From NCBI GenBank assembly GCA_964578625.1, contig CAZODQ010000001.1, forward strand, positions 23,401 through 87,400: a stretch of DNA of 64,000 bases. Direction: 5' to 3'. Of this stretch, positions 9,775-60,178 are shown one piece after another; position 1 is the first letter of the stretch, and each line of letters opens with the position of its first letter. The notes below the pieces were generated by a model. That model did no database searches, was not told where the DNA came from, and worked only from the letters and a program-made list of their open reading frames with translations. Source of the stretch: an uncultured Actinomycetota bacterium (lineage in GTDB: Bacteria; Actinomycetota; Humimicrobiia; Humimicrobiales; Humimicrobiaceae). Made by a program: the position numbers and the translations under genes.

Positions 9775-10851
9775 TTATATTTTCTGAAAGATGCCGTAGA
9801 TATAACCGCATATTTTTGAAAAATCTATTAGCAGAAGTAAAAAAGGTATGGTTGGGATAGATAGGAACTTCTCAAACCTATAAAAAATAAAGCTTCTCTT
9901 ACCATTCCAGTTTCTGACCAGTCTGACATAGGGCTTTAAAATGTAAAGCATGAAAAGGGGTATCAATACAGCCAATATCCATTTACTAAAATAAAACGCA
10001 CTGAACAAAATAATTAAGAAAGCAAGAAATGCAGCAAATCTTATAAGATGGCGGGCCGGATACATATTGCCTACGGCGTCGCCTTTTGCATATCTAAAGA
10101 ACTGCTGGGATATTTGAATAAGGTTCTCCCTCATCCTCCAATAAACCACAGCTTTTGGATTGAACCTTATTTTATAACCGGCAGATTTTATATTAAAATT
10201 AAATCTCATATCTTCTCCGTATTCCATATTTTCGGGATAACCGCCGGCTATAGTCCAGATATCCCTTTTAAAACTAATATTTCTGGACGAAGGCATATAC
10301 CTTTCAGCTTTTATTTCCTTTTCCGCAGGCATGATACATACGGCAAGACATTTCTGTATGAAATTCCGGCATAACGGCAGATTAAGACCTCCGACCACAT
10401 TACATGAACTATCATTATAAAAGGCAGTAATTTCTTTTAGCCAGTTTCTATCTAGAATACAGCCTGCATCACCTACGCATATAATCCTGCCTGACGTGTT
10501 TTTTATGGCATTATTTCTACCCTGTGAAATATTTGCACCTTTTTTTCTTATCAACCTGATATTTATGACATATGTCCCACTTTTATTCTTTTTTATCCTA
10601 CCCCTGTTATTTTCATTTAACACAATATTCAGACCCCTGTGTTTCGGTGAAGCTATATTTTTGAAAAATTTTGAAGTAATACTAAAAGTCTTATCTTCAG
10701 AACCTCCGTCCACTATAACTATTTCCCCAGGAAGACATGTCTGTGCCATTAGACTTTTTAGAAATTCAGAAATATTCCCTTCCTCATTATAAACAGTAGT
10801 TATGAAGCTTATATCCGGAAGTATGATTTTTTTACTATTTTCAACTGTCAT
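9775..10851 (-). CDS. GT2 glycosyltransferase with C-terminal transmembrane helices
   Basis: 358 aa. ISFITTVYNEEG...IVIVDGGSEDKT. The hydrophobic C-terminal third resembles the membrane anchor of polyprenyl-phosphate sugar synthases. Overlaps the next gene by 11 nt. Confidence 0.75.
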   Translation of the reverse strand: MTVENSKKIILPDISFITTVYNEEGNISEFLKSLMAQTCLPGEIVIVDGGSEDKTFSITSKFFKNIASPKHRGLNIVLNENNRGRIKKNKSGTYVINIRLIRKKGANISQGRNNAIKNTSGRIICVGDAGCILDRNWLKEITAFYNDSSCNVVGGLNLPLCRNFIQKCLAVCIMPAEKEIKAERYMPSSRNISFKRDIWTIAGGYPENMEYGEDMRFNFNIKSAGYKIRFNPKAVVYWRMRENLIQISQQFFRYAKGDAVGNMYPARHLIRFAAFLAFLIILFSAFYFSKWILAVLIPLFMLYILKPYVRLVRNWNGKRSFIFYRFEKFLSIPTIPFLLLLIDFSKICGYIYGIFQKI

Positions 10852-11815
10852 ATCCCTGACCTCTGAAGTATGATTTTAAGACCTTAAAATAAATCAAAAG
10901 CTTAGCTCTATTACTTTTGACCGGTTTAAATACAGATAATATTATAAATAACAGTATCCTGTTTATAATTCCTGTTAAATAAATAAAACTTAAAAACTCC
11001 TCATGTGTTTTAGAATAATTTTTCTTAAAATATAATCTTCTGCTTGTCCAGATACCTATTTCCCTTACAGCCATATTCCTGGATGCAATAGCCATGTCAA
11101 CATGCTCTATTATAAAGTATGGAAAATAATAGTTCTTAAAGCCCTTTCTATATAATTTAAGACAAAGATCACTGTCCTCGCTGTATATAAAATAATCCTC
11201 ATCAAACATCCCCACTTCTATAAAGTCATCCTTTTTTATAAACATAAATGAGCCTGTAAGCCAATCCACTTCTCTTTCGCTTTCATGGTCCCACCAGCTC
11301 ATAAAATAAGATCCGAAAATACGGCTTTTTTTAAATATCCTGTATAAAAAATAACTCTCATAAAATTGTCTTGCAAGTGTTGGAAAAGATCTTGAGCTGA
11401 GCTGAAGAGTTCTATCCATATTTAATATTTTTGCTCCTATTACCCCTACCCTGCCGTTTCTATTCCTTTTATTATAAAAAACTATAATATCTTTTAAATC
11501 ACCCTCTAAAAACTTTGTATCAGGATTTAAAAACAGCAGGTATTTACCTTTCGCTTTTGAAGCTCCGATATTGGATGCTCTTGAAAAACCCATATTTTTC
11601 TTATTAGCTATAAAACGGAAAGTATCATTCATTTTGTCCTGTTCTTCCAGATACTCTATACTTCCGTCACCGGATTTATTATCCACAACCAATATCTCAT
11701 AACTTAATTTATTTTTTTTTCTCTTATTTGTTTCAGTGATCTTGCTTATGCTTCCGAGGCAGTCTTTAATAAAACTAAGACTGTTATAATTTACGATTAT
11801 AATACTAATATCCAA
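10841..11815 (-). CDS. GT2 glycosyltransferase
   Basis: 324 aa. IIVNYNS...VVDNKSGDGS...FIYSEDSDLC acidic motif. Confidence 0.8.
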   Translation of the reverse strand: MDISIIIVNYNSLSFIKDCLGSISKITETNKRKKNKLSYEILVVDNKSGDGSIEYLEEQDKMNDTFRFIANKKNMGFSRASNIGASKAKGKYLLFLNPDTKFLEGDLKDIIVFYNKRNRNGRVGVIGAKILNMDRTLQLSSRSFPTLARQFYESYFLYRIFKKSRIFGSYFMSWWDHESEREVDWLTGSFMFIKKDDFIEVGMFDEDYFIYSEDSDLCLKLYRKGFKNYYFPYFIIEHVDMAIASRNMAVREIGIWTSRRLYFKKNYSKTHEEFLSFIYLTGIINRILLFIILSVFKPVKSNRAKLLIYFKVLKSYFRGQGYDS

Positions 11816-11842
11816 TCATACCACCAGTCGACAATCCCTTTG

Positions 11843-13468
11843 CTATTTTTTTAATAAGTCACTGACTATTGAAATCAGGTTCCTTTTAAAATTTATATTT
11901 GAAAATCTTCTGCAGTTTTTAACTGCATTCTTTCTAATTCCTTTTGTATCAATTTCCCCGCGTATTATGCTTAAAGTAATATTTTTAAGTTCCTCCCAGC
12001 TTTCAAATAAAAATCCGTTATACTTGTCATTTATGATCTCCTTTTGACCTCCCTTATTGATAACAACAGGAATACATCCAGCTGCCATTGCCTCTACGGT
12101 AGTTATTCCAAAATGTTCAAATTTCTCAGGATGGATTTTTTCATCTTCATCCATCCCGGAAGCGTGCCAGAAAATATACGATTTTGCAAAAAGTTTTACC
12201 AGTCGCGGCCATTCCATATTAGTAATTACCCTTATGGGGTAATTCTTACTCACTTCCCTTATCTTTTCCACATACTTCAGATGGTCAGGCCTCCTGTCCA
12301 GACCGCCGACCAGATATAGAGTATAACCCTTCATGTCATCAGGATACAGCCTCAGCAGCTCCTTGAATATCTCAGCCAGTTCCAGCTGCTTTTTATTATG
12401 ATGCTCCGGGAAAAATCTACCTACGCTTAAGATAATTTTCTCCTTAATGCCGGATTTAAGATTAGCAATATCTACGGGAGGGAATAAAACAATGCTCTGT
12501 CTGTTCCATAATCTCTTTATCCACTTTTTTGAATATACCGATATGGCAATTATTTTATGGTAGGTCTCCAAAAATTTCAGATCCCTGGGAAAAGTTATCA
12601 GAAATAAAGGGATATACCCTAAAATCTTGAGTATTATTTTTTTATAAAAGTGTATCCTTCTCCGATCATAGACTACTATACCAAGCTTTCTGGAATCCTT
12701 TGAACTTTCACCTGCTTCCAGCGGAATAAAAGTATCGGATGAGATTATGACTTTACAATATTTTTCATCATTACCTAATGGAATTTCAAAAGTACATTTA
12801 ACTCCTCTTCCAAGCCTTATATGTTTATCATATAGAAGTCTCTCCTTTTTTTCTCCAGCCCCGAATACCTTGATATCCACCCCTATTTTACTTAGACTGC
12901 TTGCTTTAGGATTCTTGAAGCCTAGTATCAACGGCTGGTCAGTTTTTTTTACCTTTAAAATTACCCTCCCGCTGCTCCAGCTTCCTCTTCTTAACAGAAA
13001 CCTTTTGGGATCATATAATCCTTCAACTATTTCTATTTCGTTGAAGCTGCACGAGAATCTTTCTGAATATTTAAAAAGCCATAACGCAGGCAATCTGAAA
13101 AAAAACAATAAAAACTTATGAATTAACCGGAAATCCACATCAAAAGGAGTTGGGAAATAACATAAATATATGTTCTTCTTACCATATGCAGGAAGCGAGC
13201 TTAAATAAGTGGCATTTATAAACAGATCATACTTCTTTATGATCCTTTCAGCATAATCCTCTGATATAAAAGGGAATATTTTCAGGTTTACCCTTTCCAG
13301 TTCAAGATTTAACCTGCCGGAAGTCTCTTTTAAATCAGCAAATATATCAGTTATCAGATCTACTTCAAACTCTTTATTTTCAGATAAAACTTCCGCAATC
13401 TTGCAGCTGTACCGTTCTCCGCCGCCAGCCGTCGATAAATATCTATCATAAATAGCTATATTTTTCAT
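11843..13468 (-). CDS. GT4 (Glycos_transf_1) glycosyltransferase with extended N-terminal region
   Basis: 541 aa. The C-terminal GT-B domain shows ...LYLVGGL...FWHASGMDEDEKIHPEKFEHFGITTVEAMAAGCIPVV. Confidence 0.8.
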   Translation of the reverse strand: MKNIAIYDRYLSTAGGGERYSCKIAEVLSENKEFEVDLITDIFADLKETSGRLNLELERVNLKIFPFISEDYAERIIKKYDLFINATYLSSLPAYGKKNIYLCYFPTPFDVDFRLIHKFLLFFFRLPALWLFKYSERFSCSFNEIEIVEGLYDPKRFLLRRGSWSSGRVILKVKKTDQPLILGFKNPKASSLSKIGVDIKVFGAGEKKERLLYDKHIRLGRGVKCTFEIPLGNDEKYCKVIISSDTFIPLEAGESSKDSRKLGIVVYDRRRIHFYKKIILKILGYIPLFLITFPRDLKFLETYHKIIAISVYSKKWIKRLWNRQSIVLFPPVDIANLKSGIKEKIILSVGRFFPEHHNKKQLELAEIFKELLRLYPDDMKGYTLYLVGGLDRRPDHLKYVEKIREVSKNYPIRVITNMEWPRLVKLFAKSYIFWHASGMDEDEKIHPEKFEHFGITTVEAMAAGCIPVVINKGGQKEIINDKYNGFLFESWEELKNITLSIIRGEIDTKGIRKNAVKNCRRFSNINFKRNLISIVSDLLKK

Positions 13469-13479
13469 AAGAAGCCTTG

Positions 13480-14889
13480 CTAAAAATCCCTCATCCAGCT
13501 TTTAATAATTCTATCATGAATTTTCCTGCTGTTTCTTATTCTGATTCTAACCAATAAATTTTTGGGAAGTAAATAAAACAGTTCAAAGAAGACCCTGATC
13601 CTGATTGGAATATCAATTCTTTTCTGCATCTTCCTCCTTAACTTTCCAGCCAGGTAGCTCAAGATATTGATTATATTTGAAAGGATAAATGCCGCGCAAC
13701 TTTTAAAAAATAAAAGCGGCCAGCCGCATTTAAAAATCATAAGCAGCCTATTCCTAACCACATGATATATAAAATTATAAGACCACTCCTTGCTGGTACC
13801 GCAGTGAAAATGTCTTACAATAGATTTGGGAGTAAAGAAATTTTTCCAACCTGCCAATCTGGACCTCCAGAACAAATCAATATCTTCATAGTATGTGAAA
13901 AAGTTATTATCAAAACAACCCATATCTTCAAACATTTTTCTATCCATCATAAAGCTGCTTCCGCTTAAGCCAAAGACCTCCTCAACCCTGCTGTACTGGC
14001 CTTCATCAAAACTTTCAAAACCCCTATCCCTGCTGTAAAAAGATTTATTTATTTTAATACCGCAGCTATTAATAATATCTTTCCTGTGGGTAAAAAGTCT
14101 TCTGGGAATCTTTATTCTAACTGTTTTAGCCCTCCCGGTAACTTTCATATCTTTTACTATTTCTTCGCCTATTACCATTTGTAAATTATTGGGTGAGATA
14201 TATGATAATACTTTAAAGCTTAAATCCAATTCTTTGTTTAGATCCTCAACCGGTACAGCCAGAACTGCGTTACCCTTTGACCAGCAGTAGATTTCCCCAC
14301 TCTCATCTGATTCCTGGGGATAAAAACCATCCATATACTTGATACTCTTATTTAAAATACTCTTTCCGTTGTCTTTTTCTCCAGCACTTCCGACTTTTAT
14401 ATCATATATTTTAACACCAAGCCTTCTTGATCTTTTACTGCTGCGCATGTCTGTTTGACTGATACTGCTTGCAATTAACTGAAGAGGCAGGTAAGGGTAA
14501 TAAAAAACTACTTTGGAACCTACTGCTCCTATTTTCGAATCATCAGTGGATTGCCTGAAGATGGAAAGCATTTCGTACAACCAGTTTTTATCGACCACAC
14601 AATCATTATTAATCAGGGCAATATATTTACCCTTTGAACGGTAAAATCCTTCATTATTACCTCCGGCATAACCTTTGTTTTCATTTAATGCGATTATCTC
14701 TACCTGCGGAAATTCCTTTTTTACAAACTCAACCGAACCATCTGTAGAATTATTATCTACCATTATTATCTGAATTTTTTTAAGTGGATAATTAAGATCG
14801 AGTATAGAATTAAAAAGGTTATATAAAAATCTCTTACCGTTAAAATTTACAGTGATAATTGATATTAAAGGATCATCATCTTGCACCAA
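13480..14889 (-). CDS. GT2 glycosyltransferase (long, with inserted region)
   Basis: 469 aa. ISIITVNFNGKRFL...IIMVDNNSTDGS...NENKGYAGGNN...YYEDIDLF. Confidence 0.8.
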   Translation of the reverse strand: MVQDDDPLISIITVNFNGKRFLYNLFNSILDLNYPLKKIQIIMVDNNSTDGSVEFVKKEFPQVEIIALNENKGYAGGNNEGFYRSKGKYIALINNDCVVDKNWLYEMLSIFRQSTDDSKIGAVGSKVVFYYPYLPLQLIASSISQTDMRSSKRSRRLGVKIYDIKVGSAGEKDNGKSILNKSIKYMDGFYPQESDESGEIYCWSKGNAVLAVPVEDLNKELDLSFKVLSYISPNNLQMVIGEEIVKDMKVTGRAKTVRIKIPRRLFTHRKDIINSCGIKINKSFYSRDRGFESFDEGQYSRVEEVFGLSGSSFMMDRKMFEDMGCFDNNFFTYYEDIDLFWRSRLAGWKNFFTPKSIVRHFHCGTSKEWSYNFIYHVVRNRLLMIFKCGWPLLFFKSCAAFILSNIINILSYLAGKLRRKMQKRIDIPIRIRVFFELFYLLPKNLLVRIRIRNSRKIHDRIIKSWMRDF

Positions 14890-14920
14890 TTAAATATCCC
14901 ACCTTACTTAAACTGAAATG

Positions 14921-15319
14921 TCATCCTCTGGAAATTACAATTACTCCTATAGTTATTATAAGTGCACCTATCCATCGTATTAAGTTTACATCTTCTTTCA
15001 GTATAAACTTTGAAAGAATCAATAACATTACATAAGTAGATCCAATAAACGGATAAGCAAAACTAAGGTCCACAGCAGATAGTACTACAAGCCATATCGC
15101 AGCTGAAATAATATATAAAAATAGACCAGATATTACCAGGGGACTTTTTATTATTCCAAGAAATAATTGACCGAGATAATCAAGCCCGTTTAAACTAACT
15201 ATCCTAATGCGGTTTATACCTATTTTCAATAACATCTGTCCACCCACAGCTATAGAGACGCTTAGTAAAATAAGTAATATTGTACTTACCAGACTCAATT
15301 TATTTCTCTCCTTAATCAT
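14921..15319 (-). CDS. Small 4-TM DMT/SMR-like membrane protein (ArnE/ArnF-like flippase subunit family)
   Basis: 132 aa, four hydrophobic segments, ...KEDVNLIRWIGALIITIGVIVI C-terminal pattern typical of EamA/SMR-type small transporters. Paralogous to 30940..31278 and 31282..31656. Confidence 0.5.
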   Translation of the reverse strand: MIKERNKLSLVSTILLILLSVSIAVGGQMLLKIGINRIRIVSLNGLDYLGQLFLGIIKSPLVISGLFLYIISAAIWLVVLSAVDLSFAYPFIGSTYVMLLILSKFILKEDVNLIRWIGALIITIGVIVISRG

Positions 15320-15352
15320 AGTTACACTATATTTTATTATCAGACTCGACAG

Positions 15353-17665
15353 TTAAGATCTATGTTTTCTTGCCAAATAATATTTGTTAGAGACAGTCAG
15401 GCCCATTATTCTGTCAATATTTTCCAGATCCCTCAGCAATACCTCAAGTTTCTGATCAATATCTATCTTCAGACCTGATTTGCTTTTGGGTTTAAAATTG
15501 CCTAAAACTTCCCTTAAACTACTAATATCATAACCAAGGCTTTTAATTTCTTTATGAAGAGTACGGAATATATCAAAATATATAAGAATCAATCTCTCCC
15601 GGTTCTTTCGATTCAGTTCATTCATTTCTTTATTTATTTGAACCTGAATATTATTATTAATGGCTTTTATCGACTGGTTATAACTCTTCCTTAAATTCTC
15701 AAAATACATACTGGTAAGGAGGTATATATATCTCCTCAGTCTTCCCTTTACATCCTTATCTTTACTCAGCTCTTCAGAATTTAAAATATCAAACCTGCTT
15801 AAAAGCCTTAAATCTTCAAAATTCTCTCTGTCCAGTTTTATCTCGAAAAGTTCAAATAATTCATTCCTGCCATATATCTCACCTATTTCATCTTTATTGC
15901 TATCTATTGTTCTATACTCTATTTCATCCCATATTCCCTTATCCTTGATCTCAAAACCGGCATTTTTTAATATATATTCAATAGTAAAATCATCAATTCT
16001 TACACTGGACCGGCTTCTTCTTGTACCCTCACCAAGAACCTTATAAAGCCCTCTTTCATCAGGAATTGAAAAAAACAGCAAACCATCCACTTTTAACTTT
16101 GATGCAAGTACGTTTATCAGGTCATAGAAAAATTTCGGAGATATTTTATAAAAGACATTATTTAAAATAATACCTTCATATTTGGTCCTTTCAGTTATTT
16201 TAGACTTTAGCATTCCTATTTCATCCAGCTCTTTCTCTTCATCTTCTATAACTGCCAGGCCAACATCCATCTCCATCCAAAATATTCTGCCCACATTAGT
16301 CCCACTTATAGCTTCTTCATCTCTATATTTATTAGAGGTTATATTCAGGACATTGGCACAGCCTTCAAAATTGTCTTTTATGATTTTTGATATTTTACTG
16401 TTCTGCAGATTAACCAACTCGGTGATCTTTTTCTTGTCAACCGCATAATCGGGATTAACACAGTATTTGACAAGCGGTTTGGTCACATTTTCCCAGTAAA
16501 ACCTGGGGGCAATTTTAATTAGATTTTTCCTGTATATCTCTCTTAAGCTTTTATTAGTAGCCATACTCTCCATGACTCTTGCCAGCTGTGCGGTATTTTC
16601 ATACTTTACCACTTCACCTATGTTCTCGGCCTTTACCATCTTCGCTATAGAATCCCCTTCGGTTGTTATAACCGGAAGTCGCGCCCAGATGTAATCTATG
16701 ACCCTCGTCCTATAGGAAAACTCGGTTTCTATCCTTTCTTGATGGATCGACAAGCCCACATCTGCGTCCAGCAGGAATGTCTGTCTTAGGTCGTATGGCG
16801 TCCATTCATTAAAAAATACAAGCTTTTCATACATATCGAGCTCTTTACTCAATTGTATTGCCTCCATGCATTTTTTCATTTCAGGAAGGCTGGAGTCCGG
16901 GTGTTTTATTCCCATAAATATCATTTTTATATTCTTTTTATCCCTGGTAATCTCCCATAATGCTTTAATAGCCGTAATTGGATCGAGCCAGTTCCAGATA
17001 CCACCTCCCCATAGGATTATACTGTCACGTTCATTGATACCCGGGATTCTATCCCCAGTATACGAAGTAGAGCGCTTGGGAGGCTGGGAAGGCATTCCGG
17101 AAGGAACAATATCTATCAGGTTCCTTAAGGTTTTATCGGAATCATAGCTGTACGGATTTATTCTACCCATGGCATTTAACATCCCTACCCAATAGTCCCT
17201 CTGTTTTTCACTTGCACAGATAAAGAAATCTCCTATTGAAAGCTGCATTTTCAATATATTTAAATTATTTTTATCAATTCTGATCCTCTCCGCAATATCA
17301 CTGTCTCTGAACATTTCCAGGCTCTCTAAATTGAAAGGATTATACAGATCTACAATAATCTTGCCTTTAAAGTTTCTGAGGAAAGGAAAATAGTAAAGAA
17401 TATGACCCTGGATCAATATGGTATCCGCCTTATCAATATATCTCTGTAAGCTTTTATAACTTCCTAACTTGTACTGTCTAGCCTTAAAGCCTTCAGTATC
17501 AATATCTATCTTATTGGGAGTAACCAGAGTAACATCCAGGTAATCAGATAAAATTTTTGCAAACTCGTAAAACCTTATACCTGGACCGGCCATATTTCTA
17601 CCAATGATGTCATAACTTATTATACAGATATTCGAAGAACTTTTATTGTTTAATTCGGTATCCAT
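15353..17665 (-). CDS. Multidomain protein: N-terminal GT-B (GT4-like, WGGG-type) glycosyltransferase, degenerate class-I methyltransferase-like domain and C-terminal coiled-coil
   Basis: 770 aa. The GT domain (IILWGGGIWNWLDP...LPVITTEGD) is paralogous to domains in 18850..20319 and 51638..54145. The middle region (KYEGIILNNVFYKISPKFFYDLINVLASKLKVDGLLFFSIPDE) aligns by eye to motifs II-III of the MTase 62433..63650 but has no GxGxG motif I. The C-terminal roughly 200 aa are heptad-rich and charged. Confidence 0.6.
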   Translation of the reverse strand: MDTELNNKSSSNICIISYDIIGRNMAGPGIRFYEFAKILSDYLDVTLVTPNKIDIDTEGFKARQYKLGSYKSLQRYIDKADTILIQGHILYYFPFLRNFKGKIIVDLYNPFNLESLEMFRDSDIAERIRIDKNNLNILKMQLSIGDFFICASEKQRDYWVGMLNAMGRINPYSYDSDKTLRNLIDIVPSGMPSQPPKRSTSYTGDRIPGINERDSIILWGGGIWNWLDPITAIKALWEITRDKKNIKMIFMGIKHPDSSLPEMKKCMEAIQLSKELDMYEKLVFFNEWTPYDLRQTFLLDADVGLSIHQERIETEFSYRTRVIDYIWARLPVITTEGDSIAKMVKAENIGEVVKYENTAQLARVMESMATNKSLREIYRKNLIKIAPRFYWENVTKPLVKYCVNPDYAVDKKKITELVNLQNSKISKIIKDNFEGCANVLNITSNKYRDEEAISGTNVGRIFWMEMDVGLAVIEDEEKELDEIGMLKSKITERTKYEGIILNNVFYKISPKFFYDLINVLASKLKVDGLLFFSIPDERGLYKVLGEGTRRSRSSVRIDDFTIEYILKNAGFEIKDKGIWDEIEYRTIDSNKDEIGEIYGRNELFELFEIKLDRENFEDLRLLSRFDILNSEELSKDKDVKGRLRRYIYLLTSMYFENLRKSYNQSIKAINNNIQVQINKEMNELNRKNRERLILIYFDIFRTLHKEIKSLGYDISSLREVLGNFKPKSKSGLKIDIDQKLEVLLRDLENIDRIMGLTVSNKYYLARKHRS

Positions 17666-17757
17666 TATATCTCTCCATTATGTCTACCATAAATAAAAAT
17701 TAAAATCATAAACAAATCCCAGTGCTCTCAAATAGTCCGGCTAATTTTGAGATGCAA

Positions 17758-18792
17758 TCATTTTAACTCTAATTTATTCAAGATTAAATGATTTTTTAAT
17801 TTAATTACCAAATTATATGGTAAAAATATAAAATTTAAAAAATAAGCATAAAGAATCGGCAAGACCTGGTCAGCTGTAGCACTGTTTTTAAACCAGGCCA
17901 ATTCTGAACAAATAAATTTTCTTAAGAAATTTAAAAATCCCAGATTTATAACTGCGCATCTGATTCTATTTTTATGGTAGTACTTATAAAAATTTTTACT
18001 AAATTTTTTTACAGAAGCACCCTCAAAATGTCTGGCAATAGAATTATAGTTTACAACCACCCGTCTCCCCGTTCTTTTGATTTTAATACAGTAATCAAGC
18101 TCCTCAAAATATAAAGGCCTGTAACCCGAATCAAATCCGCCTAAGGCTTTAAACAGCTGAAATTCAGTAGCCAAAAACGCTCCGGTAATATAATCTGCAT
18201 CTTTTAAATTGCCTGCTAATTCCGGCACATTTTTTTTATTTCCTTTATGTCTATATTCCTGTTTTAGATCATAATAACTTTTCCCGTACCCTATGTGGGA
18301 AGTAATAAAATTGTCCTCAATCCTCCCACCGAGGTGTTGTATGGCATCTTTTTTATAGTCAAGAATAAGTCCGCCTGCGGCTCCAATTTCTTTGAACGGT
18401 TTGCAGTGATTTTCCCCGATTTTGAAAGTCGAAACCAATTTCTGCAACGCGCTTCGCTTTAAACATATATCCGGGTTCAGCAAAATCAGGAATTTTAATT
18501 CTCTTTCCAGATTTTTATTCTCTCCTGATACAAAATTGAATACTGCATAATTGACCGCTCCTGAAAATCCGATATTTTTCCTTAGAGTAATAAGCTTAAA
18601 ACTACTGCTGGTCATACCCCGGTATATATCTCTGAACTCTTTTACCTTTGCTACTGTTTTATCATTTGAATTATTATCTATGACTGTCAGGAACCAGTCA
18701 TTATAACTTTGTTCTGCTACCGAACAGAGACAGTTTTCAATAAAGTCCTGGCTGTTATAGGTTACAATTACTATTAAACTTTTAGTGCCCAT
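17758..18792 (-). CDS. GT2 glycosyltransferase
   Basis: 344 aa. LIVIVTYNSQDFI...LTVIDNNSNDKT...NIGFSGAVN. Confidence 0.8.
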   Translation of the reverse strand: MGTKSLIVIVTYNSQDFIENCLCSVAEQSYNDWFLTVIDNNSNDKTVAKVKEFRDIYRGMTSSSFKLITLRKNIGFSGAVNYAVFNFVSGENKNLERELKFLILLNPDICLKRSALQKLVSTFKIGENHCKPFKEIGAAGGLILDYKKDAIQHLGGRIEDNFITSHIGYGKSYYDLKQEYRHKGNKKNVPELAGNLKDADYITGAFLATEFQLFKALGGFDSGYRPLYFEELDYCIKIKRTGRRVVVNYNSIARHFEGASVKKFSKNFYKYYHKNRIRCAVINLGFLNFLRKFICSELAWFKNSATADQVLPILYAYFLNFIFLPYNLVIKLKNHLILNKLELK

Positions 18793-18849
18793 ATTGCTTC
18801 CTGTTATAATCCGTATAATGCCAAGAGAAGGCAGGAGCGGGATAGAAGG

Positions 18850-20319
18850 TCAACTGGAGATTTTCCTTTTAATAATTCTTAGATACCCGTATATTTTATA
18901 AATCAAACCTTTCTTTACTATCCCTTCAAGCTCTGATATTCGCTTATCTCTCTCTTCTATCATCTTTTTCTGGCGCAGGGTTATTTGTACCAAATTCTTG
19001 ACAGCTTCTTCCCTCTTGAAAAAAAACTTTCTTTTTCTTCCTTTATCGGGGGAACATGAAGGATTACCAGTCCATTCCTGTAATTTCTTGGTAGTCCTTT
19101 TAAAATTAAAATGCTCCAGTCCGTATTTTTTACCGGCATCTGCAGTTTTTTTGACCTCATTCGGGTGATCAGCAAGATAGATCAGTTTACTGCTCAGCTC
19201 CCTATGATCATAAGGTTTAAATGTATATCCGATCTTTTCTTTCTCTATAATATTAGTCAATTCACAAACATTGGATGAAAGTACACAGAGCCCTGCCCTT
19301 AACCAGTCCAGAATACGGTTTTTACTGCCCAACCTTACCTCATAAATATCTCTGTCGATATTTATACCCACATCTGCTTCCATGTAATAATTAGGCACAT
19401 CTTCACCTTTGATCCAGCCTTTCATTATAAATCTGTCCTTATAAGAGCTGCCGTTTATCATAGATAAAAACCTGGGATAAGTCTTTATATCCTGTTCAGG
19501 TATCTCCCCGCCGGTAGATACAAATTTGATCTTTGGATTCTTCTCCATTGCAAGCGCAAGCCCCTTAAATAAAGTATCAACATCAGTCCAGGTATTATAT
19601 CCTCCGGTCCACAGCACTATAAAATCATCCTTTTTTATTCCATTTTTTCCCCGGAGAACATCCCTGGTATATTTGTATTCTTCCAGAGGAACACCGCATG
19701 GAATGACATTGGTAAAATCATAACCCGATGTGTATTTATTAAGTCTGCCGACTGCTCCAAGCTCCCCTATTAGAGCATACTGCTGCCTTGACGACACACA
19801 CGAAAAAATATCTGCATTGGATATAACATTATATTCACTATTCCAGTAATGAAACAGACAGTCGTCATTTTCATCAATACTTGCCCGAGCCTGTGCTTCT
19901 GCCATTACATGCCCAAATAAATCTGCCCAGAAAGGAACGGCACTGTCTTTAAGATAATAAAGCAGCCTGGAGGCGATATAAGAAGGATAAAAAGTGCAGC
20001 CGACTATACAGTCAGGTTTGAAAGATTTAAAAATTTTTAATATTAATTCAATATTTTCAAATTCATCTTTCTTAAGTATATTATAATTAAAATTGTACTT
20101 TAAACTTTTAGCAAAATCCTTTTTAAAACCTGACTTAAAATCATCTGGATATGCCGAGGGTATGGCATAATTACATACACACACCTTAAAATCTTTTTCC
20201 AGCAGAGGCAGTATAAATTGCCACGTTCTGATACCGGTCCCGTATACTTTTTTGTCATTCTCAAATGGTAACGGGCTCATTCCCAGTAAAAATACTTTTT
20301 TCATATCAAATAAAATCAC
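18850..20319 (-). CDS. GT-B glycosyltransferase (GT4-like, WGGG/WTGG-type) with short C-terminal coiled-coil
   Basis: 489 aa. IVLWTGGYNTWTDVDTLFKGL...ADVGINIDRD...AGLCVLSS is paralogous to the GT domains of 15353..17665 and 51638..54145. C-terminus has QKKMIEERDKRISELEGIVKK. Confidence 0.6.
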   Translation of the reverse strand: MILFDMKKVFLLGMSPLPFENDKKVYGTGIRTWQFILPLLEKDFKVCVCNYAIPSAYPDDFKSGFKKDFAKSLKYNFNYNILKKDEFENIELILKIFKSFKPDCIVGCTFYPSYIASRLLYYLKDSAVPFWADLFGHVMAEAQARASIDENDDCLFHYWNSEYNVISNADIFSCVSSRQQYALIGELGAVGRLNKYTSGYDFTNVIPCGVPLEEYKYTRDVLRGKNGIKKDDFIVLWTGGYNTWTDVDTLFKGLALAMEKNPKIKFVSTGGEIPEQDIKTYPRFLSMINGSSYKDRFIMKGWIKGEDVPNYYMEADVGINIDRDIYEVRLGSKNRILDWLRAGLCVLSSNVCELTNIIEKEKIGYTFKPYDHRELSSKLIYLADHPNEVKKTADAGKKYGLEHFNFKRTTKKLQEWTGNPSCSPDKGRKRKFFFKREEAVKNLVQITLRQKKMIEERDKRISELEGIVKKGLIYKIYGYLRIIKRKISS

Positions 20320-20498: not shown

Positions 20499-22481
20499 AT
20501 GAAAGTTATATTAATAATACTTATAATTCTATTTCTAGCAATAACATCACTATACGGGATCACTATAATCAACAAAAATAAAAGTATTGACTACGAAGAC
20601 GAATATAGTCTAACAACAGAAGAAAAAAGTGAAGATAGCAAAACAACTTCTCCCGATTCAAAAGTAGAAACTATCGGTGACAATCAGGAAATTCTTAATA
20701 TTGATTTAGATAATATAGGAGCCGATGATGAAGAAAGCAATACTACAGAAGACAAACAGGAAGATTTAACCTCAGACGATGAAAAAACTCCGGAAACTCA
20801 ACAGAACGAGGGGGAGGAAGCTGAAGAAGAAGTTGAGGAAGTTGAAGAAGCCGAGGAAGAAGAATCAGAGGAAGAAGAAAAAATAGAGGATAATACCATC
20901 AGGATCTTCTTAGATGGAGATATGGAGAATGGTATATACCTGGGTGAAACAATATGTGACCAGGAATCAATAGAAGCATATGGTCTTTACGGAGAAGAAT
21001 TTAAAAATACGGGTTTTAAATTTACATGGGAAAATAATGATGTAAATTTCCTTCCAGGTTCAACCCATTATATTTATATATATTTCTATAGTACCGAATT
21101 AGGATGGGACCATATCAGAGAAGAAATAAATTTGCCGGGTGAAAAAGATTGTGAAAGGGACATAATAATCTTTATAGATAAACCACAGGAAAAAACCATT
21201 ACTGAAAGCCTTCAGTTAATTGATGGGTGGACTGTAGACTTGAGAAACGATGAAAGTCCGGGTATAAAAGAAGTAGAGATTTACTTAAACGGACCAAAGG
21301 ATTACGGCAAATCCATAGGCACAATACAGTATGGTATACCAAGATATGATGTAGTAGAATTTTTAAAAAACCAGAGCTATCTTAATAGTGGTTATCGGTT
21401 CGATGAACCAATTGATCTTGAACCCGGGTCCAAGCATACACTATTCATATATGCCTACAGTTCACAAGACAATTCATTCAATTATGAAAAAAGAGAAATT
21501 TACCTGTCAGGAATAAAAGAAGAAAAAGCAATAATTAAAGCTCAAATTAACCAGGAAAAACTCTCTCAAGATAATATCATCGAAGTTACCGGTTGGGCTA
21601 TTAATAAAAAAATTCTAGAGGATTACCTAAAAGAAAAACTAGAGCTTGAGAAGGAAACTACTGAAAGTGAAGATGGATATTCTATAAAAAAGGCAGTATT
21701 TACCTCTAATAGGGACGGTAATAAAAACATTTACAGTATAAATATTGACGGGACAGGAATCACCAGGTTGACCAGTTATTCTGGAAATGATTTTTATCCG
21801 GAGGCATCACAGGACGGACATAAAATTGCCTATGCTTCAGACATTGGAGGCGTATGGCAAATAATGGTCATGGATTGGGATGGGAAAAACAAAAAACAAA
21901 TTACCCATAATAGTTTCCGCTGTGGATATCCCAGCTGGTCTTTCGACGGCAAATATATATATTTTGAAGCTTATATTGACGGAGATTGGGAACTTTTCAG
22001 GATAAACAGCAATGGGACAGGCCAGAAAAGGCTGACCTTTGATTCTAATCACAACGACTGGCATCCAAACGGACATCCATTCAAATATAAAATTATCTAT
22101 GAATCAGGTGTTACCGGACATGAAAACATCTATGTAATGGATCATAATGGTTCAGGAATCAAAAATATATGTGATAGCGGTCCCAGAAGAAGAGTCCCAG
22201 ATGTATCAAACGATGGAAATAAAATAACTTATATGAGGTACTCCGGAGATAATAGTGAAATTTGGATTATGGATTACAGCGGACAAAACGAAACAAGGCT
22301 TACCTCTAATCCCGACTGGGATGGACATCCATCATTTTCCCCGGACGATAAATATATTATTTATGATGAGAAAAAAGGATCTAAAGAAGATTTGATTTTA
22401 ATAGATCTTGCCAGTGGAATAAAGACAAATATAACTAATTCTTCCAGTATTGATGAAGATCCAAGTTTTCTATACCGGTAG
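20499..22481 (+). CDS. Membrane-anchored surface protein: N-terminal TM, poly-Glu/Asp linker, two repeats of an ~85-aa domain, C-terminal TolB-like PD40 beta-propeller
   Basis: 660 aa. N-terminus VILIILIILFLAITSLYGI; acidic low-complexity run EEAEEEVEEVEEAEEEESEEEEK. The C-terminal ~270 aa carry repeated PD40-type blades (FTSNRDGNKNIYSINIDG, ASDIGGVWQIMVMDWDG, FDGKYIYFEA, SNDGNKITYMRYSG, SPDDKYIIYDE). Confidence 0.7.
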   Translation: MKVILIILIILFLAITSLYGITIINKNKSIDYEDEYSLTTEEKSEDSKTTSPDSKVETIGDNQEILNIDLDNIGADDEESNTTEDKQEDLTSDDEKTPETQQNEGEEAEEEVEEVEEAEEEESEEEEKIEDNTIRIFLDGDMENGIYLGETICDQESIEAYGLYGEEFKNTGFKFTWENNDVNFLPGSTHYIYIYFYSTELGWDHIREEINLPGEKDCERDIIIFIDKPQEKTITESLQLIDGWTVDLRNDESPGIKEVEIYLNGPKDYGKSIGTIQYGIPRYDVVEFLKNQSYLNSGYRFDEPIDLEPGSKHTLFIYAYSSQDNSFNYEKREIYLSGIKEEKAIIKAQINQEKLSQDNIIEVTGWAINKKILEDYLKEKLELEKETTESEDGYSIKKAVFTSNRDGNKNIYSINIDGTGITRLTSYSGNDFYPEASQDGHKIAYASDIGGVWQIMVMDWDGKNKKQITHNSFRCGYPSWSFDGKYIYFEAYIDGDWELFRINSNGTGQKRLTFDSNHNDWHPNGHPFKYKIIYESGVTGHENIYVMDHNGSGIKNICDSGPRRRVPDVSNDGNKITYMRYSGDNSEIWIMDYSGQNETRLTSNPDWDGHPSFSPDDKYIIYDEKKGSKEDLILIDLASGIKTNITNSSSIDEDPSFLYR

Positions 22482-22983
22482 TAGACGGCTTTTCCACTTG
22501 GCGTTTAGCTTCATGTTTAAACCTTTTGTATTTTACTGCAAATCTCAACCTAATAGATGAACCAATGGAAATTCCAAGCCATAAAGACCAAATAATATTA
22601 TTGGAAAAGAAATAATAAACAAGGTCTGAGACAGTTAAGTCTGTACCAAAGAACTTAACCGCTATCAGATTAACAGCACCTGTGCCGTTGAGTATTAAAG
22701 CAAGAGCTGGAATAAAACCCACTATTAGAAACACCTTGATATCAAAATAATTCCTTTTAGCTTTGGGTTTCATAGTAAGAATTATTAAAAGCCCGATCAT
22801 AAAACCAATAATAAAAACAATAAAATATCTCAGGAGACTCAAGTAACCAGCAGATATATTATAACCAGCAAAGGCATCCAATATATTATCAAAGTAGGCA
22901 AAGCCCGCATAGTAAAGAATTATGTTTATAAAACTGAATACCGTTAGAAAAACTCTCATTTTCTTCCAGCTGATAATATACAT
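22435..22983 (-). CDS. Small polytopic (about 4-TM) membrane protein of unknown family
   Basis: 182 aa. Paralog of 24939..25418 (shared MR[VI]FL..FSFIN...IIWSLWLGISIGSSIRL-type motifs). Its 3' end overlaps the 3' end of the convergent gene 20499..22481 by 47 nt. Confidence 0.5.
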   Translation of the reverse strand: MYIISWKKMRVFLTVFSFINIILYYAGFAYFDNILDAFAGYNISAGYLSLLRYFIVFIIGFMIGLLIILTMKPKAKRNYFDIKVFLIVGFIPALALILNGTGAVNLIAVKFFGTDLTVSDLVYYFFSNNIIWSLWLGISIGSSIRLRFAVKYKRFKHEAKRQVEKPSTTGIENLDLHQYWKN

Positions 22984-23158
22984 GTATAAATAAACAATTA
23001 GATGTTAGCTCAAAAATATATTAATTTCAATTAACCCTGTAATCTGTTATACTTTTAAACCTGAAAAATATATTTTATTAATTTAATAAATATAATTAAA
23101 TTACTCTTTAATTTTTTAATATTCAAATAAAACCTTTGATATTTAGATATTAATAAGA

Positions 23159-24937: not shown

Positions 24938-24938
24938 C

Positions 24939-25418
24939 TTACTTGGAATTTTCCTTTTCAGTTTTATCAATTGACATATGCCTGTATACTCTACCAGAAA
25001 AACTGAAGCGTACCGATGAACCTACGGCAAAACCAAACCATAATGACCAGATAGCCTGTCTTGAGAAAAGATAAAACACCATTTCGCTTAACTTTTCACT
25101 TGAGTTGAAAAATTTATTTATAATAAAACCGGTAATAGTACCCTCGGACAGTATAAGACAGATAAACGGAATAATTCCAATAATTATAAGGTTTTTAAAA
25201 CTAAAAAGACTTTTCTCTATATTTAACCGCATTATAAGCATTATACTTACACCCATACAAAATCCGACAATTAAAAGTGCTGTCAGTTTGATATAATTAG
25301 CCGCTGTCGGAGATAAATTCACTGCTCCCAATATTTCCAAAATCTTATCAAAAAAAGAATATATAAGAATATAAAAAATGGTATTAATAAAAGAAAATAT
25401 TATTAAAAAAATCCTCAC
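24939..25418 (-). CDS. Small polytopic membrane protein, paralog of 22435..22983
   Basis: 159 aa. Conserved segments with 22435..22983 (MRIFLIIFSFIN..., AIWSLWFGFAVGSSVRF). Lies 1 nt from the stop of the convergent propeller gene. Confidence 0.5.
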   Translation of the reverse strand: MRIFLIIFSFINTIFYILIYSFFDKILEILGAVNLSPTAANYIKLTALLIVGFCMGVSIMLIMRLNIEKSLFSFKNLIIIGIIPFICLILSEGTITGFIINKFFNSSEKLSEMVFYLFSRQAIWSLWFGFAVGSSVRFSFSGRVYRHMSIDKTEKENSK

Positions 25419-25488
25419 GATCTATCCTTCTCCTCTTATTTAAATACATTTGTCTTTGACATATTAATAAAAATTATATCTAAAATAA

Positions 25489-27309: not shown

Positions 27310-27399
27310 CTATATTGTCTCAACATTTGTATTTATAAAAAAACAGCTTTATATTATATCAAAAATCTAATATCTAAATAAAGCCCTTTGCTTACAATC

Positions 27400-27780
27400 C
27401 TAATTCTTTATGTTCATTTCAATATCATCACAATCAATATAATTATCACGATAAGTTGCCCTGAACTTTATTAAAGAATTACCGGGAGTGCTGCCCTTAA
27501 GTTTCACAATTAGATTAATCTTACCGTTCCCTTTTATTACATATGAATCACTTACCCACATATATATACCATTACTCAAGCCGGGATACTGATTAATATA
27601 TCCATCAAGGCTTACTCCTTCAAATCCAATATTATCCGGGAGTTCTAATTCGAGAGAACTGATTTTAGCATCATACTCATTGGTGTTTCTTATAATATAT
27701 TCAACAGTAAATTCCTCTCCGATTTCCTTGGTATAATCGTCAACCATATATTCAATTTTGATACTCCTATCCAGATTTAA
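27400..27780. repeat. About 0.38-kb DNA-level repeat (copy 1) encoding the shared DUF11-like C-terminal domain
   Basis: Nucleotide similarity is visible between 27400-27780 and 29013-29395. For example, 27548-27600 cccacatatatataccattactcaagccgggatactgattaatatatccatcaagg matches 29166-29222 cccacatatacataccccggctcaagccaggatcctgatcaatatatccggaagg. Confidence 0.7.
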
Positions 27781-28992: not shown

Positions 28993-29012
28993 AGCTTACT
29001 CTTATTTTTAAA

Positions 29013-29395
29013 TTAATCTGTTATTTCCATTTCAATATCATCACAGTTAACATAAACCTCATTTGTAGTCAACCTAAACTTAATAGGTGACTTTCCCGGC
29101 TTGGTACCCCTAAGTTCTACAATTAAATTTATTTCATCTTCTCCCTCAATAACATATGAATCACTGACCCACATATACATACCCCGGCTCAAGCCAGGAT
29201 CCTGATCAATATATCCGGAAGGAATTGTTCCTATAAATTTAATATTATCCGGAAGCTCCAGTTCAAGCGAGCTGATTTTAATGCTTTTTTTATTCTTATT
29301 ACTGATTATATATTCAACGGTAAATTCCTCACCATATTTTCTACTGTAACTATCGCTGTAGTAATCTATTTCCACATTCACGACAGTTTCATTGA
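29013..29395. repeat. About 0.38-kb DNA-level repeat (copy 2) encoding the shared DUF11-like C-terminal domain
   Basis: See copy 1. The encoded peptides share GEEFTVEYII.N.N...KISSLELELPDNI.F....GYI.Q.PGLS.G.YMWVSDSYVI.G...INLIV.L.G..PG.S.IKFR.....Y..CDDIEM.I. Confidence 0.7.
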
Positions 29396-60149: not shown

Positions 60150-60178
60150 TCTAATACTAAAATATTTATTTTATAAAC

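Follow-up and report, generated by a model that had tools for sequence, protein, structure and literature searches.

Length control of bacterial polysaccharides is currently explained by multi-module proteins that unite polymerisation with termination, and, to our knowledge, all characterised examples combine an active terminator with a coiled-coil spacer. What, then, is the role of a glycosyltransferase fusion in which a terminator-type methyltransferase fold lacks its cofactor loop and is followed by a rigid, sequence-invariant helix? Such a protein is encoded by an uncultured Actinomycetota bacterium of the Humimicrobiaceae, in a 64,000-nt stretch of DNA (the window, to which all positions refer). 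An earlier note took it for a ruler/terminator scaffold. The reading that we favour, and consider reasonably probable, is a soluble cytoplasmic glycan-assembly protein of three modules: a GT4 glycosyltransferase (GT), a binding or structural domain that was once a methyltransferase, and a helical extension, the C-terminal half acting as an acceptor-binding or complex-organising (oligomerisation or scaffold) module. With its fold kept and its cofactor loop lost, it would be a natural pseudoenzyme module in glycan assembly, and the family is useful for asking what non-catalytic roles such domains have, for example in acceptor binding or complex assembly.

A fusion family of one actinobacterial lineage

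The ORF on which the earlier note was based is present on the minus strand, with an ATG start and 770 codons for amino acids, and the proposed architecture of GT, methyltransferase-like domain and C-terminal helical part was confirmed as a GT-B fold, a methyltransferase fold without motif I and a long helical region (Table 1). A search recovered 950 homologues, the best 120 of which are of similar size (~757–780 aa) and 58–92% identical to the query over 97–100% of its length; these 120 and the query make up the 121-member alignment used for the counts below. No transmembrane (TM) segment was found in the 770-aa protein. The C-terminal 365 aa lie outside every Pfam family and, among 1.84 billion representative proteins, are essentially without relatives beyond the Humimicrobiia lineage; the fusion of a GT4 to a degenerate methyltransferase is restricted to this single uncultured actinobacterial lineage. 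In the literature searched, we found no description of the envelope of this uncultured class. Because the C-terminal half is conserved (mean column conservation 0.64–0.73), with segment lengths fixed across the 121 aligned proteins, we rejected the reading that it is a decaying remnant. Confidence in the AlphaFold2 (AF2) models was moderate, with a pLDDT of 71 for the full-length protein and of 59 for the C-terminal half, and the two conflict with each other over the last 10 residues.

Table 1 Features of the fusion protein and of the surrounding cassette
Feature	Residues	Positions in window	Strand	Basis
Whole ORF: GT4 domain, methyltransferase-like domain and helical module	1–770	15353..17665	-	
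GT-B glycosyltransferase domain, retaining GT4 type	1–405	16451..17665	-	AF2 model, Foldseek, Pfam
WGGGIWNWLDP, GT4-subfamily signature	219–229	16979..17011	-	Invariant in family alignment A1
Connecting helix (DYAVDKKK...)	406–433	16367..16450	-	Helix 409–433 in both AF2 models
Class I SAM-methyltransferase-fold core (Methyltransf_23-like), probably non-catalytic	434–590	15896..16366	-	
NVLNITSNKYRD, glycine-free segment at the position of SAM-binding motif I	438–449	16319..16354	-	Aligned to VLDIGCGRG of 3dli
Variable low-confidence loop, then conserved YGxNELFELFEIKL...LLSRFDIL	591–638	15752..15895	-	
Single long helix (~105 Å)	639–709	15539..15751	-	Helix in both AF2 models
Shorter helices and tail ..MGLTVSNKYYLARK	710–770	15356..15538	-	
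Upstream GT2, 344 aa (GT2_344), likely functional partner		17758..18792	-	Pfam GT2, conserved gene order
First cassette gene, GT4 of 489 aa (GT4_489), paralogue of the target GT domain		18850..20319	-	BLASTP
Four-segment membrane protein, EamA / ArnE-ArnF-like, 132 aa, directly downstream		14921..15319	-	Pfam EamA, E 6e-7
Remaining cassette: GT2 (469 aa), GT4 (541 aa), GT2 (324 aa, 1 TM), GT2 (358 aa, 3–4 C-terminal TM)		9775..14889	-	

The glycosyltransferase domain

The N-terminal domain is modelled as the two Rossmann halves of a GT-B fold, and Foldseek matched it to MshA, BshA, WaaG, SPS and PimA (E 2e-12 to 6e-9). It is the best-conserved region of the whole protein. The WGGG-type GT-B start described earlier is borne out by the position of the signature within this fold, together with Foldseek (E ~1e-12) and Pfam. 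Searches of Pfam and NCBIfam with the full protein gave weak GT4 matches alone: Glycos_transf_1 (PF00534) covered aa 210–381 of the query at E 1.8e-4, scoring 21.5 bits where the cut-off is 26.4. Scores above the gathering threshold were obtained in relatives with Glycos_transf_1 or Glyco_trans_1_4 (28.8 in P0048, 33.8 in P0057, 30.0 and 34.5 in P0127, 37.8 and 42.6 in P0141); PF26337, listed in the precomputed annotation of P0048, P0057 and P0058, was not recovered in a local Pfam search of these proteins. Used as a search pattern, the signature retrieved 275 species-level genomes, and the GT4 subfamily with WGGG(I/V)W.W(L/F)DP is present in several phyla. The C-terminal modules of GT4 homologues from Clostridia and Deltaproteobacteria, considered as possible relatives of the target's C-terminal half, are not related to it; they represent a different ~125-aa domain, common to L078 and L082/L085 (E 7e-18).

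The target shares its GT-B fold with the retaining GT4 enzymes MshA, BshA, WaaG and PimA but is only 11–16% identical to them and carries, besides its signature, the distinctive motif H-x4-E-T-x-F-S-x-R-T-R-x-x-D-Y. Five residues (H308, E313, R319, R321 and D324) are invariant in the region expected for an EX7E-type motif, an assignment by region and not by residue-level alignment to a solved GT4. Because the full-length family profile matched no solved glycosyltransferase in the PDB and EX7E could not be mapped, the case for activity is made by fold and conservation by themselves, which suggest that this domain would be an active retaining GT4-type glycosyltransferase. The helix connecting it to the next domain is 28 aa long in all 121 members, and the NPDYAxDK junction is common to the target and its paralogue GT4_489.

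A methyltransferase fold without motif I

A fold search and the predicted structure show that the middle domain retains the Rossmann-like methyltransferase fold in full. The profile search likewise found the methyltransferase similarity proposed for this region: a profile of aa 405–770 matched four Pfam-verified methyltransferases among 1.84 billion sequences (E 1.2e-4 to 5.9e-4) and, in the PDB, 3dli_A (E 0.017). With Pfam, Methyltransf_23 appeared below threshold in 3 of 27 C-terminal halves (E 0.06–0.11), the remainder being noise. The earlier note had aligned motifs II and III by eye to a methyltransferase of the same locus. The 405-aa methyltransferase concerned (62433–63650) is indeed in the window, but it belongs to another gene cluster at a distance of 45 kb, and hhalign, which reproduced the register of the alignment, gave a match to the family that is not significant alone (E 0.045, probability 1.2%).

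The closest profile relatives of aa ~420–590 are 3dli, an Archaeoglobus fulgidus SAM-dependent methyltransferase, the Methyltransf_23-type enzymes P0144–P0147 of glycan loci and the window methyltransferase. They share motifs II and III with the target (FDGxxxxxxxEH.. and LKxxGxLxxxxPN), and their C-terminal end, ..Y-A-x-I-A-K-K, resembles that of the target. P0146 has a target-like layout, with a core, a ~140-aa helical region that separates it from the terminal strand, and a terminal ...YAVGKK. Two differences stand out: these proteins are stand-alone, often with an N-terminal coiled coil, and none is fused to a GT; and they keep motif I (GCGxG in four, ACGRG in P0146), unlike the target.

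In the target family, the segment aligned to motif I reads N-V-L-x-I-T-S-N-K-Y-R-D instead of the glycine-rich E/D-x-G-x-G-x-G. Glycine is absent from the 15 residues of aa 438–452 in 112 of the 121 members, which upholds the claimed absence of motif I; within the segment, L440, T443, N445 and D449 are nearly invariant, and the acidic residue of VLDxG has become a variable K/V/F/A. Among more distant fusion proteins, motif I is also degenerate in P0127, in L074 and in the P0133 fragment, L074 and P0133 having at most a vestige of it, VLLVGEELKGMA, and in P0141, where the alignment is less clear. Residue E465, which ends a predicted strand (460–465, strand 2), is acidic (E/D) in 117 of the 121 members. 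Together with the nearly invariant D481, it aligns with the acids that contact ribose and adenine of SAM in genuine methyltransferases, in alignments of 8–17% identity.

Because the glycine-rich SAM loop is gone, the middle domain has most likely lost its methyltransferase activity, and the description of a dead methyltransferase was a reasonable one for such a fold without motif I. Because E465 and D481 are kept at ribose- and adenine-contact positions, the domain may still bind some nucleoside ligand, or even SAM, a point that counts against the favoured reading. The fused C-terminal part is probably a non-catalytic binding or scaffolding module.

Two other readings bear on these residues. 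In the first, the protein would be a bifunctional GT and methyltransferase like WsaE (PMC2943079), with the middle domain active and SAM bound through a non-canonical I-T-S-N-K-Y loop. The complete fold, the two conserved acids, the WsaE precedent and the conservation of the replacement loop, as expected of a functional site, all fit it. We nevertheless consider it quite unlikely, given the missing glycines, the bulky K/Y/N residues where the methionine moiety of SAM normally packs, the variable residue at the motif I acid, the sparse sub-threshold Pfam matches and the glycine-rich loop kept by every genuine methyltransferase relative found (GCGxG in three, ACGRG in P0146). In the second, which we regard as very unlikely, the domain would bind a ligand, either an effector of the nucleoside or nucleotide type or else a nucleotide sugar, and control the GT4 allosterically, with the helix as a transmission or dimerisation element. 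E465, D481 and the novel conserved loop (T443, N445, D449) would suit such a site, and the structural neighbours of the domain include methyltransferase-fold proteins repurposed for other chemistry (SpnF, RdmB and TamK); against it, the residue equivalences come from the low-identity alignments mentioned above, and our literature search found no such precedent among glycan-assembly enzymes.

Under the favoured reading of a binding or structural domain, its origin may lie in glycan loci. The methyltransferase gene of P0144 adjoins Wzm, Wzt_C and GT4s, that of P0145 an ABC exporter and GTs, and that of P0147 a GT-C. Since the nearest active methyltransferases thus sit in glycan loci, one of them beside Wzm/Wzt whose carbohydrate-binding module is Wzt_C, the domain could plausibly descend from an enzyme that caps chains: module 2 would derive from Methyltransf_23-type capping methyltransferases and, having lost the SAM loop, would be maintained by selection as a binding or structural domain.

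A long helix of fixed length

The middle domain is followed by a variable loop, with pLDDT below 50 over aa 579–611 (full-length model) and indels clustered in aa 577–611, and then by a segment of fixed length (aa 612–638, 27 aa). The final ~130 aa are predicted to be helical and include the helix at aa 639–709, which is the best-conserved stretch of the C-terminal half. The helix is 71 aa long in 120 of the 121 members, and its motif spacing is preserved in P0127 and P0141, which are distant relatives; in P0141, no other region of the C-terminal half gave a match (E 2e-6 for the helix). Its invariant residues are polar (R659, N663, N672, Q676, E680, N682, N685, N688, R689 and R691). A proposed resemblance to the N-terminal coiled coils of genuine methyltransferases ('HGEIRRYIDPIISM..FNES' in P0147 against 'KGRLRRYIYLLTSMYFEN' in the target) was not significant (E 0.28 in an eight-sequence database), and we therefore dropped the idea of a circular permutation.

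This helix is central to the ruler/terminator reading of the earlier note. Spelled out, that reading has an oligomeric coiled coil of the WbdD/WbbB type space a terminator from a polymerase and so set chain length in an ABC-transporter pathway; the terminator here would be either the GT4, by adding a capping sugar, or, as a placeholder, the dead methyltransferase. The about 200 aa of heptad-rich charged sequence described there did not materialise. The hydrophobic period of the helix is 3.75–3.8, not 3.5 (above the 99th percentile of shuffles), a continuous heptad register over its whole length shows almost no a/d enrichment (0.06 in a crude test), and the charged fraction is 35%, compared with 30% over the whole protein. 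We would not expect a spacer to be the best-conserved part of such a module, and the invariant length also counts against a ruler. The single helix is also short of the WbdD coiled coil, which is reportedly ~200 Å long (a figure attributed to Hagelueken and colleagues, 2015).

The tail adds a further point. The model of the C-terminal half places a strand at aa 762–767 (pLDDT ~75), where the full-length model has a helix (pLDDT <50), and genuine relatives terminate in YGPxDYAxIAxK, a resemblance to the target tail seen by eye only. The tail of aa 710–770 may form the final strand of the methyltransferase-like sheet. A scan for hydrophobic segments found no hydrophobic C-terminal segment or membrane anchor in the target, and no amphipathic C-terminal anchor was detected; both this and the likeness to a methyltransferase strand would speak against a ruler, although the tail may still bind membranes through an amphipathic segment. 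In our favoured reading, module 3 (aa ~612–770) would be a helical extension built mainly around a single rigid helix of 71 residues whose polar surface is conserved; the tail of the module would probably fold back to complete the methyltransferase-like sheet.

Comparison with known glycan-assembly proteins

The architecture, which the earlier note did not recognise among described systems, has precedents. WsaE of the Geobacillus stearothermophilus NRS 2004/3a S-layer glycan unites glycosyltransferase and chain-terminating methyltransferase in a single polypeptide (PMC2943079), and Klebsiella pneumoniae O7 ORF6 adds a coiled coil to the same pair (PMC11231755). The version with a degenerate methyltransferase does set the target apart: our literature search found no description of a pseudo-methyltransferase fused to a glycosyltransferase.

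Like the target, WsaE is a soluble polypeptide with GT and class I methyltransferase modules, and it acts in cell-surface glycan assembly of a Gram-positive bacterium (PMC2943079). Compared by description, the two differ in that WsaE has an active methyltransferase (2-O-methyl cap) at its N terminus, ahead of two rhamnosyltransferase modules, whereas the methyltransferase-like domain of the target follows the GT4, lacks motif I and continues into a ~170-aa helical extension; moreover, the WsaE gene adjoins wzm/wzt, and the target gene has no adjacent ABC transporter.

ORF6, WbbB of K. pneumoniae O12 and WbdD of Escherichia coli O9a/O8 are coiled-coil terminator/ruler proteins that, like the target, combine a terminator-type domain with a long helical element, with GT modules in ORF6 and WbbB (PMC11231755). 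This likeness to an architecture of GT, methyltransferase fold and long helix is an argument for a ruler. In these proteins, an extended coiled coil bears an active terminator (kinase, methyltransferase or Kdo-transferase) at its distal end. The membrane-proximal region of WbdD recruits the polymerase (PMC11231755). The target differs in its methyltransferase, whose loss of motif I leaves its sole terminator-type domain degenerate, in its non-heptad, fixed-length helix and in having no detectable membrane anchor. Single-sequence and profile searches against all PDB chains, with E up to 10 (up to 1 in one profile search), gave no match to WbdD or WbbB.

The degenerate domain allows a further, more speculative proposal, which we regard as decidedly improbable. 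The C-terminal half, as the dead descendant of a capping methyltransferase, would read the non-reducing end of the growing glycan and, together with the fixed-length ~105 Å helix lined with Asn, Arg and Gln, would offer it to the fused GT4. A 'reader' pseudoenzyme plus a capping sugar would then bring about termination or control length, with neither methyl or phosphate chemistry nor a Wzt carbohydrate-binding module. If true, bacteria would have a new mechanism for ending or measuring a glycan.

A conserved glycosyltransferase cassette

The gene is a marker of a cell-envelope glycan cassette of eight genes (9775–20319) that is conserved in Humimicrobiia. Of four other genomes examined, L001–L003 share the set and order of genes, and L004 carries these genes too, partly rearranged and with an NTP-transferase inserted; the cassette is kept even where the flanks differ. 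No ABC transporter was found in the cassette or its flanks in L001–L003 (10 kb on each side) or L004 (4.7 kb upstream and 10 kb downstream). ORF6, WbbB and WbdD work with Wzm/Wzt, and the window does encode Wzm/Wzt (Wzt_C) and a coiled-coil methyltransferase at 57.9–63.7 kb, in a separate cluster whose Wzm/Wzt lies 38 kb from the cassette. The presence of this cluster in the window, the placement of the nearest active methyltransferases in Wzm/Wzt loci with a carbohydrate-binding module, and the GT4 homologues of other phyla, which are fused to a GT2 and end in short helical tails, all count in favour of a ruler. Set against the non-heptad helix of nearly invariant length, the undetected anchor, the unlinked transporter and the missing sequence match, they leave a WbdD/WbbB-type ruler/terminator unlikely in our judgement, and we found no evidence that the fusion protein measures chain length.

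In the acceptor-binding or scaffold reading that we prefer, the protein would operate within this cassette with GT2_344 as its partner. In Anaerolineae and Clostridia, members of the target's GT4 subfamily carry a fused N-terminal GT2 module, and GT2_344 is homologous to this module (E 3e-11 and E 2e-7, respectively). Because GT2 and GT4 are fused in other phyla, it is the most likely functional partner, as far as generic GT2 similarity and gene order can indicate. The 132-aa EamA-like gene lies downstream of the target homologue in L001–L003, L005 and L006 and is absent in L004; its product matches NCBIfam ArnF under the cut-off (E 7e-12). At the other end of the cassette, GT4_489 aligns with aa 142–413 of the target (BLASTP E 1e-21, 25% identity) and ends in a short basic amphipathic helix.

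The 770-aa protein and its glycosyltransferase domain

The 770-aa protein is encoded by an ATG-initiated open reading frame in a window of 34% GC, and a search of 5.8 billion proteins returned 950 relatives. The gene is real and, judging by those relatives, under selection along its whole length, because the best 120 of the 950 are of near-equal length (~757–780 aa) and 58–92% identical over 97–100% of the query. Mean column conservation is 0.78–0.82 in the GT region, 0.64 at aa 440–600 and 0.73 at aa 600–770. The few relatives that carry a name are called 'glycosyltransferase family 4 protein' and belong to metagenome-assembled genomes of Actinomycetota or Candidatus Humimicrobiaceae. Across GTDB, with one genome taken per species, relatives turned up in 275 species and the full architecture was limited to Humimicrobiia-type Actinomycetota, with Ca. 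Humimicrobium oleiphilum UBA1414, Ca. Hydromicrobium and Ca. Calidifonticultor as hosts.

In a full-length AlphaFold2 model of moderate confidence (56-sequence alignment; mean pLDDT 70.9), aa 1–405 adopt a two-Rossmann GT-B fold. Foldseek against the PDB matched this domain to the retaining GT4 enzymes MshA, BshA, WaaG, sucrose-phosphate synthase and PimA (E 2e-12 to 6e-9, identity 11–16%), yet the family sequence profile matched no solved glycosyltransferase in a PDB search; the predicted domain is therefore a divergent GT4. Pfam Glycos_transf_1 scores 21.5 bits at aa 210–381, below the cut-off of 26.4 that relatives pass. Two motifs are invariant: WGGGIWNWLDP (aa 219–229) and H308-x4-E313-T-x-F-S-x-R319-T-R321-x-x-D324-Y. 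The GT domain alone occurs at 38–45% identity in Anaerolineae, Clostridia, a Deltaproteobacteria MAG and Bacillota, either stand-alone or joined to further modules, which are an N-terminal GT2 or an unrelated domain of ~125 aa together with a short helical tail. The ~125-aa domain, which has no Pfam match, lies at aa ~100–225 of the homologue L078 and in the C-terminal regions of L082 and L085. It is common to GT4 homologues of the Deltaproteobacteria MAG (N-terminal) and of Clostridia (C-terminal), in copies 34% identical (E 7e-18), and represents a distinct accessory module of this GT4 subfamily, in permuted position.

A methyltransferase-like domain with a replaced motif I

Searched alone against the PDB, the protein reached E 0.3 with 3dli_A, an Archaeoglobus fulgidus SAM-dependent methyltransferase; family profiles improved this to E 0.014–0.017, with aa ~434–589 aligned to 3dli residues 39–193, the entire fold. 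A profile of aa 405–770, built from 27 members and scored against 1.84 billion representative proteins, reached E ≤ 1e-3 with only 28 proteins. The majority are fragments of the protein's own family, and four (P0144–P0147; E 1.2e-4 to 5.9e-4, profile positions ~16–183, the P0144 match covering 73–171 only) are confirmed by Pfam as Methyltransf_23/11/25 proteins. All four keep the glycine-rich motif I loop, as GCGxG in three and ACGRG in P0146. Together, these searches show that the middle domain has a class I methyltransferase fold, with real but remote homology. An earlier note had aligned it by eye to the window's own methyltransferase; hhalign reproduces that register, but the match alone is not significant (E 0.045).

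That motif I is missing, as the note also held, is borne out by the family alignment: the VLDIGCGRG of 3dli corresponds to N-V-L-x-I-T-S-N-K-Y-R-D in the family, and Gly is absent from the 15-residue segment in 112 of 121 sequences. L440, T443, N445 and D449 are nearly invariant there, and the loop is, on this alignment, exchanged for another conserved sequence and not merely decayed. Motif I is also degenerate in the distant fused relatives P0127 (764 aa), L074 (at most a vestige, VLLVGEELKGMA), the P0133 fragment and, in a less clear alignment, P0141 (699 aa). E465, which closes strand 2, is acidic (E or D) in 117 of 121 members, and D481 hardly varies; in low-identity alignments both fall on acidic residues that contact the SAM ribose and adenine in true methyltransferases. 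Their conservation counts against a simple 'dead' reading. A WsaE-like reading, in which the methyltransferase would stay active through a non-canonical SAM loop, is unlikely in our view, and a nucleoside- or nucleotide-sensing regulatory domain slightly less likely again.

Glycan loci encode the nearest genuine methyltransferases. P0144, an N-terminal coiled coil followed by a methyltransferase domain, lies among GT4 genes, and next to it are Wzm and a Wzt that bears the Wzt_C carbohydrate-binding module; the P0145 gene sits between an ABC exporter and GT2/GT4 genes, and that of P0147 adjoins a PMT_2-type GT-C. This setting, shared by the window's own methyltransferase, fits the proposal that the domain derives from a chain-capping methyltransferase, without showing that the 770-aa protein still ends chains.

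A predicted long helix of fixed length

Both predicted models, at moderate confidence, place a single long helix at aa 639–709 (71 residues, ~105 Å), with shorter helices after it. The helix does not behave as the heptad coiled coil that had been read from the sequence: in a home-made periodicity analysis the best whole-helix register gave an a/d hydrophobic enrichment of only 0.06, and the 95th percentile of shuffles was exceeded only at aa ~696–730. Hydrophobicity across the family shows its strongest period at 3.75–3.8 (power 2.43 versus a shuffle 99th percentile of 1.8). The helix measures exactly 71 aa in all but one of 121 members, and the spacing from YFENLRKSYN to QINxExNELN is identical in the distant P0127 and P0141; in the latter the helix is the sole C-terminal piece still recognisable. 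It holds most invariant residues of the C-terminal half, largely polar (R659, N663, N672, Q676, E680, N682, N685, N688, R689 and R691). Such conservation of length and sequence would not be expected of a plain spacer.

The C-terminal end, ..MGLTVSNKYYLARK, is predicted as a strand when the C-terminal half is modelled by itself (pLDDT ~75) and as a low-confidence helix in the full-length model. Genuine methyltransferase relatives, the window's 405-aa methyltransferase among them, terminate in YGPxDYAxIAxK, and in P0146 the methyltransferase core is likewise followed by a ~140-aa helical region and then a terminal strand. We therefore infer that aa ~577–761 are an enlarged insertion ahead of the final strand of the methyltransferase-like sheet. 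At its start the long helix (KGRLRRYIYLLTSMYFENLRKSYN) looks, by eye, similar to aa 101–145 of P0147 (HGEIRRYIDPIISMQTRFNES); HMMER gave a non-significant E of 0.28 in a tiny database, and a permutation relationship with this N-terminal helical region is at most a possibility.

A conserved cassette without a transporter

The gene occupies third place among eight co-directional genes at 9775–20319 on the minus strand, whose set and order recur in relatives at 60–73% identity despite differing flanks; in the relative L004 (42% identical) the gene order is partly changed and the EamA-like gene is lacking, the genes being otherwise the same. ABC transporter, Wzx, Wzy and initiating phosphoglycosyltransferase genes are absent from the cassette and from the fetched flanks (L001–L003, 10 kb each side; L004, 4.7 kb upstream and 10 kb downstream).

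Features of the window discussed in the text
Feature	Coordinates	Strand	Remark
GT2, 358 aa	9775–10851	−	eighth cassette gene; 3–4 C-terminal TM
GT2, 324 aa	10841–11815	−	seventh; one TM
GT4, 541 aa	11843–13468	−	sixth
GT2, 469 aa	13480–14889	−	fifth
EamA / ArnE-ArnF-like, 132 aa	14921–15319	−	fourth; four hydrophobic segments
770-aa protein	15353–17665	−	third
Long helix of 770-aa protein	15539–15751		
GT2, 344 aa	17758–18792	−	second; likely partner of 770-aa protein
GT4, 489 aa	18850–20319	−	first transcribed; paralogue of its GT domain
Cell-surface gene set	20499–30902		
PMT_2/TMEM260-like GT-C	29013–30902		
Two radical-SAM proteins, one B12-binding, one with SPASM domain	33156–34553; 36537–37535	+; −	
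Two LPG_synthase_TM-family membrane proteins	34603–35643; 50496–51581	−	
GT2-GT4 dual-module, 835 aa	51638–54145	−	
GT4-GT2 dual-module, 788 aa	54409–56775	+	
ABC-transporter-dependent glycan locus	57947–63650	−	
Wzt with Wzt_C module	57947–59332	−	
Wzm	59316–60149	−	
Methyltransferase, 405 aa	62433–63650	−	beside two GT4 genes and Wzm/Wzt(Wzt_C)

The 489-aa GT4 is 25% identical to the GT domain of the 770-aa protein (E 1e-21) and carries a short basic amphipathic helix at the position of the methyltransferase-like module. Its C-terminus, ...ERDKRISELEGIVKKGLIYKIYGYLRIIKRKISS, consists of a short helix and then a basic amphipathic tail that could bind membranes; GT homologues L081, L086 and L082 of other phyla carry similar tails. 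The 344-aa GT2 is homologous to the GT2 fused elsewhere to GT domains of the same subfamily (E 3e-11 and 2e-7), which suggests that it and the 770-aa protein act together.

In most relatives the downstream neighbour is the 132-aa membrane protein, whose likeness to ArnF/ArnE flippase subunits (E 7e-12, below the cut-off) hints at a polyprenyl-phosphate-sugar flipping step. A cell-surface gene set that adjoins the cassette keeps its synteny in L001 and L002. It encodes two PD40/Tricorn-like beta-propeller proteins, the PMT_2-type GT-C and two proteins with CARDB domains, of which one is DUF11/CARDB and bears a GDSL lipase domain while the other bears a polysaccharide deacetylase domain.

Proposed function and known systems

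The earlier note proposed a WbdD/WbbB-type ruler-terminator of an unrecognised architecture. The domain logic is not new: WsaE unites glycosyltransferase modules with a terminating methyltransferase in a single protein (PMC2943079). K. pneumoniae O7 ORF6, likewise a single polypeptide, is built from a terminating methyltransferase-kinase, a coiled coil and two GT2 modules, and the layout of WbbB is similar except that its terminator differs (PMC11231755). We consider a ruler-terminator role improbable: the helix is non-heptad in the periodicity analysis, invariant in length and conserved in sequence, no hydrophobic anchor segment was detected, no transporter is linked within the fetched flanks, and PDB searches gave no sequence similarity to solved WbdD/WbbB-type proteins. 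We lean, with some reserve, towards a soluble retaining GT4 that would work with the upstream GT2 inside the cassette, its C-terminal half being a module of methyltransferase origin, probably without catalytic activity and with a rigid conserved helix, that may serve acceptor binding or complex organisation. The literature searched gave no description of such a protein in which motif I is lost from a still conserved methyltransferase domain, a fixed-length, sequence-invariant helix is attached and the cassette has no transporter.

Other glycan genes in the window

A canonical ABC-transporter-dependent glycan locus lies further along the window. Its 405-aa protein, which has a coiled-coil-like stretch of ~200 aa at the N-terminus and a Methyltransf_23 domain that is intact (VLDIGCGRG) and ends in YGPQDYAVVGYKI, looks like a real chain-terminating methyltransferase paired with a cap-reading exporter. 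Adjoining Wzm/Wzt, the divergently oriented 835-aa and 788-aa glycosyltransferases are candidate polymerases of that system. The LPG_synthase_TM and radical-SAM genes lie scattered among genes of the GT2, hexapeptide-transferase and sugar-nucleotide kinds.
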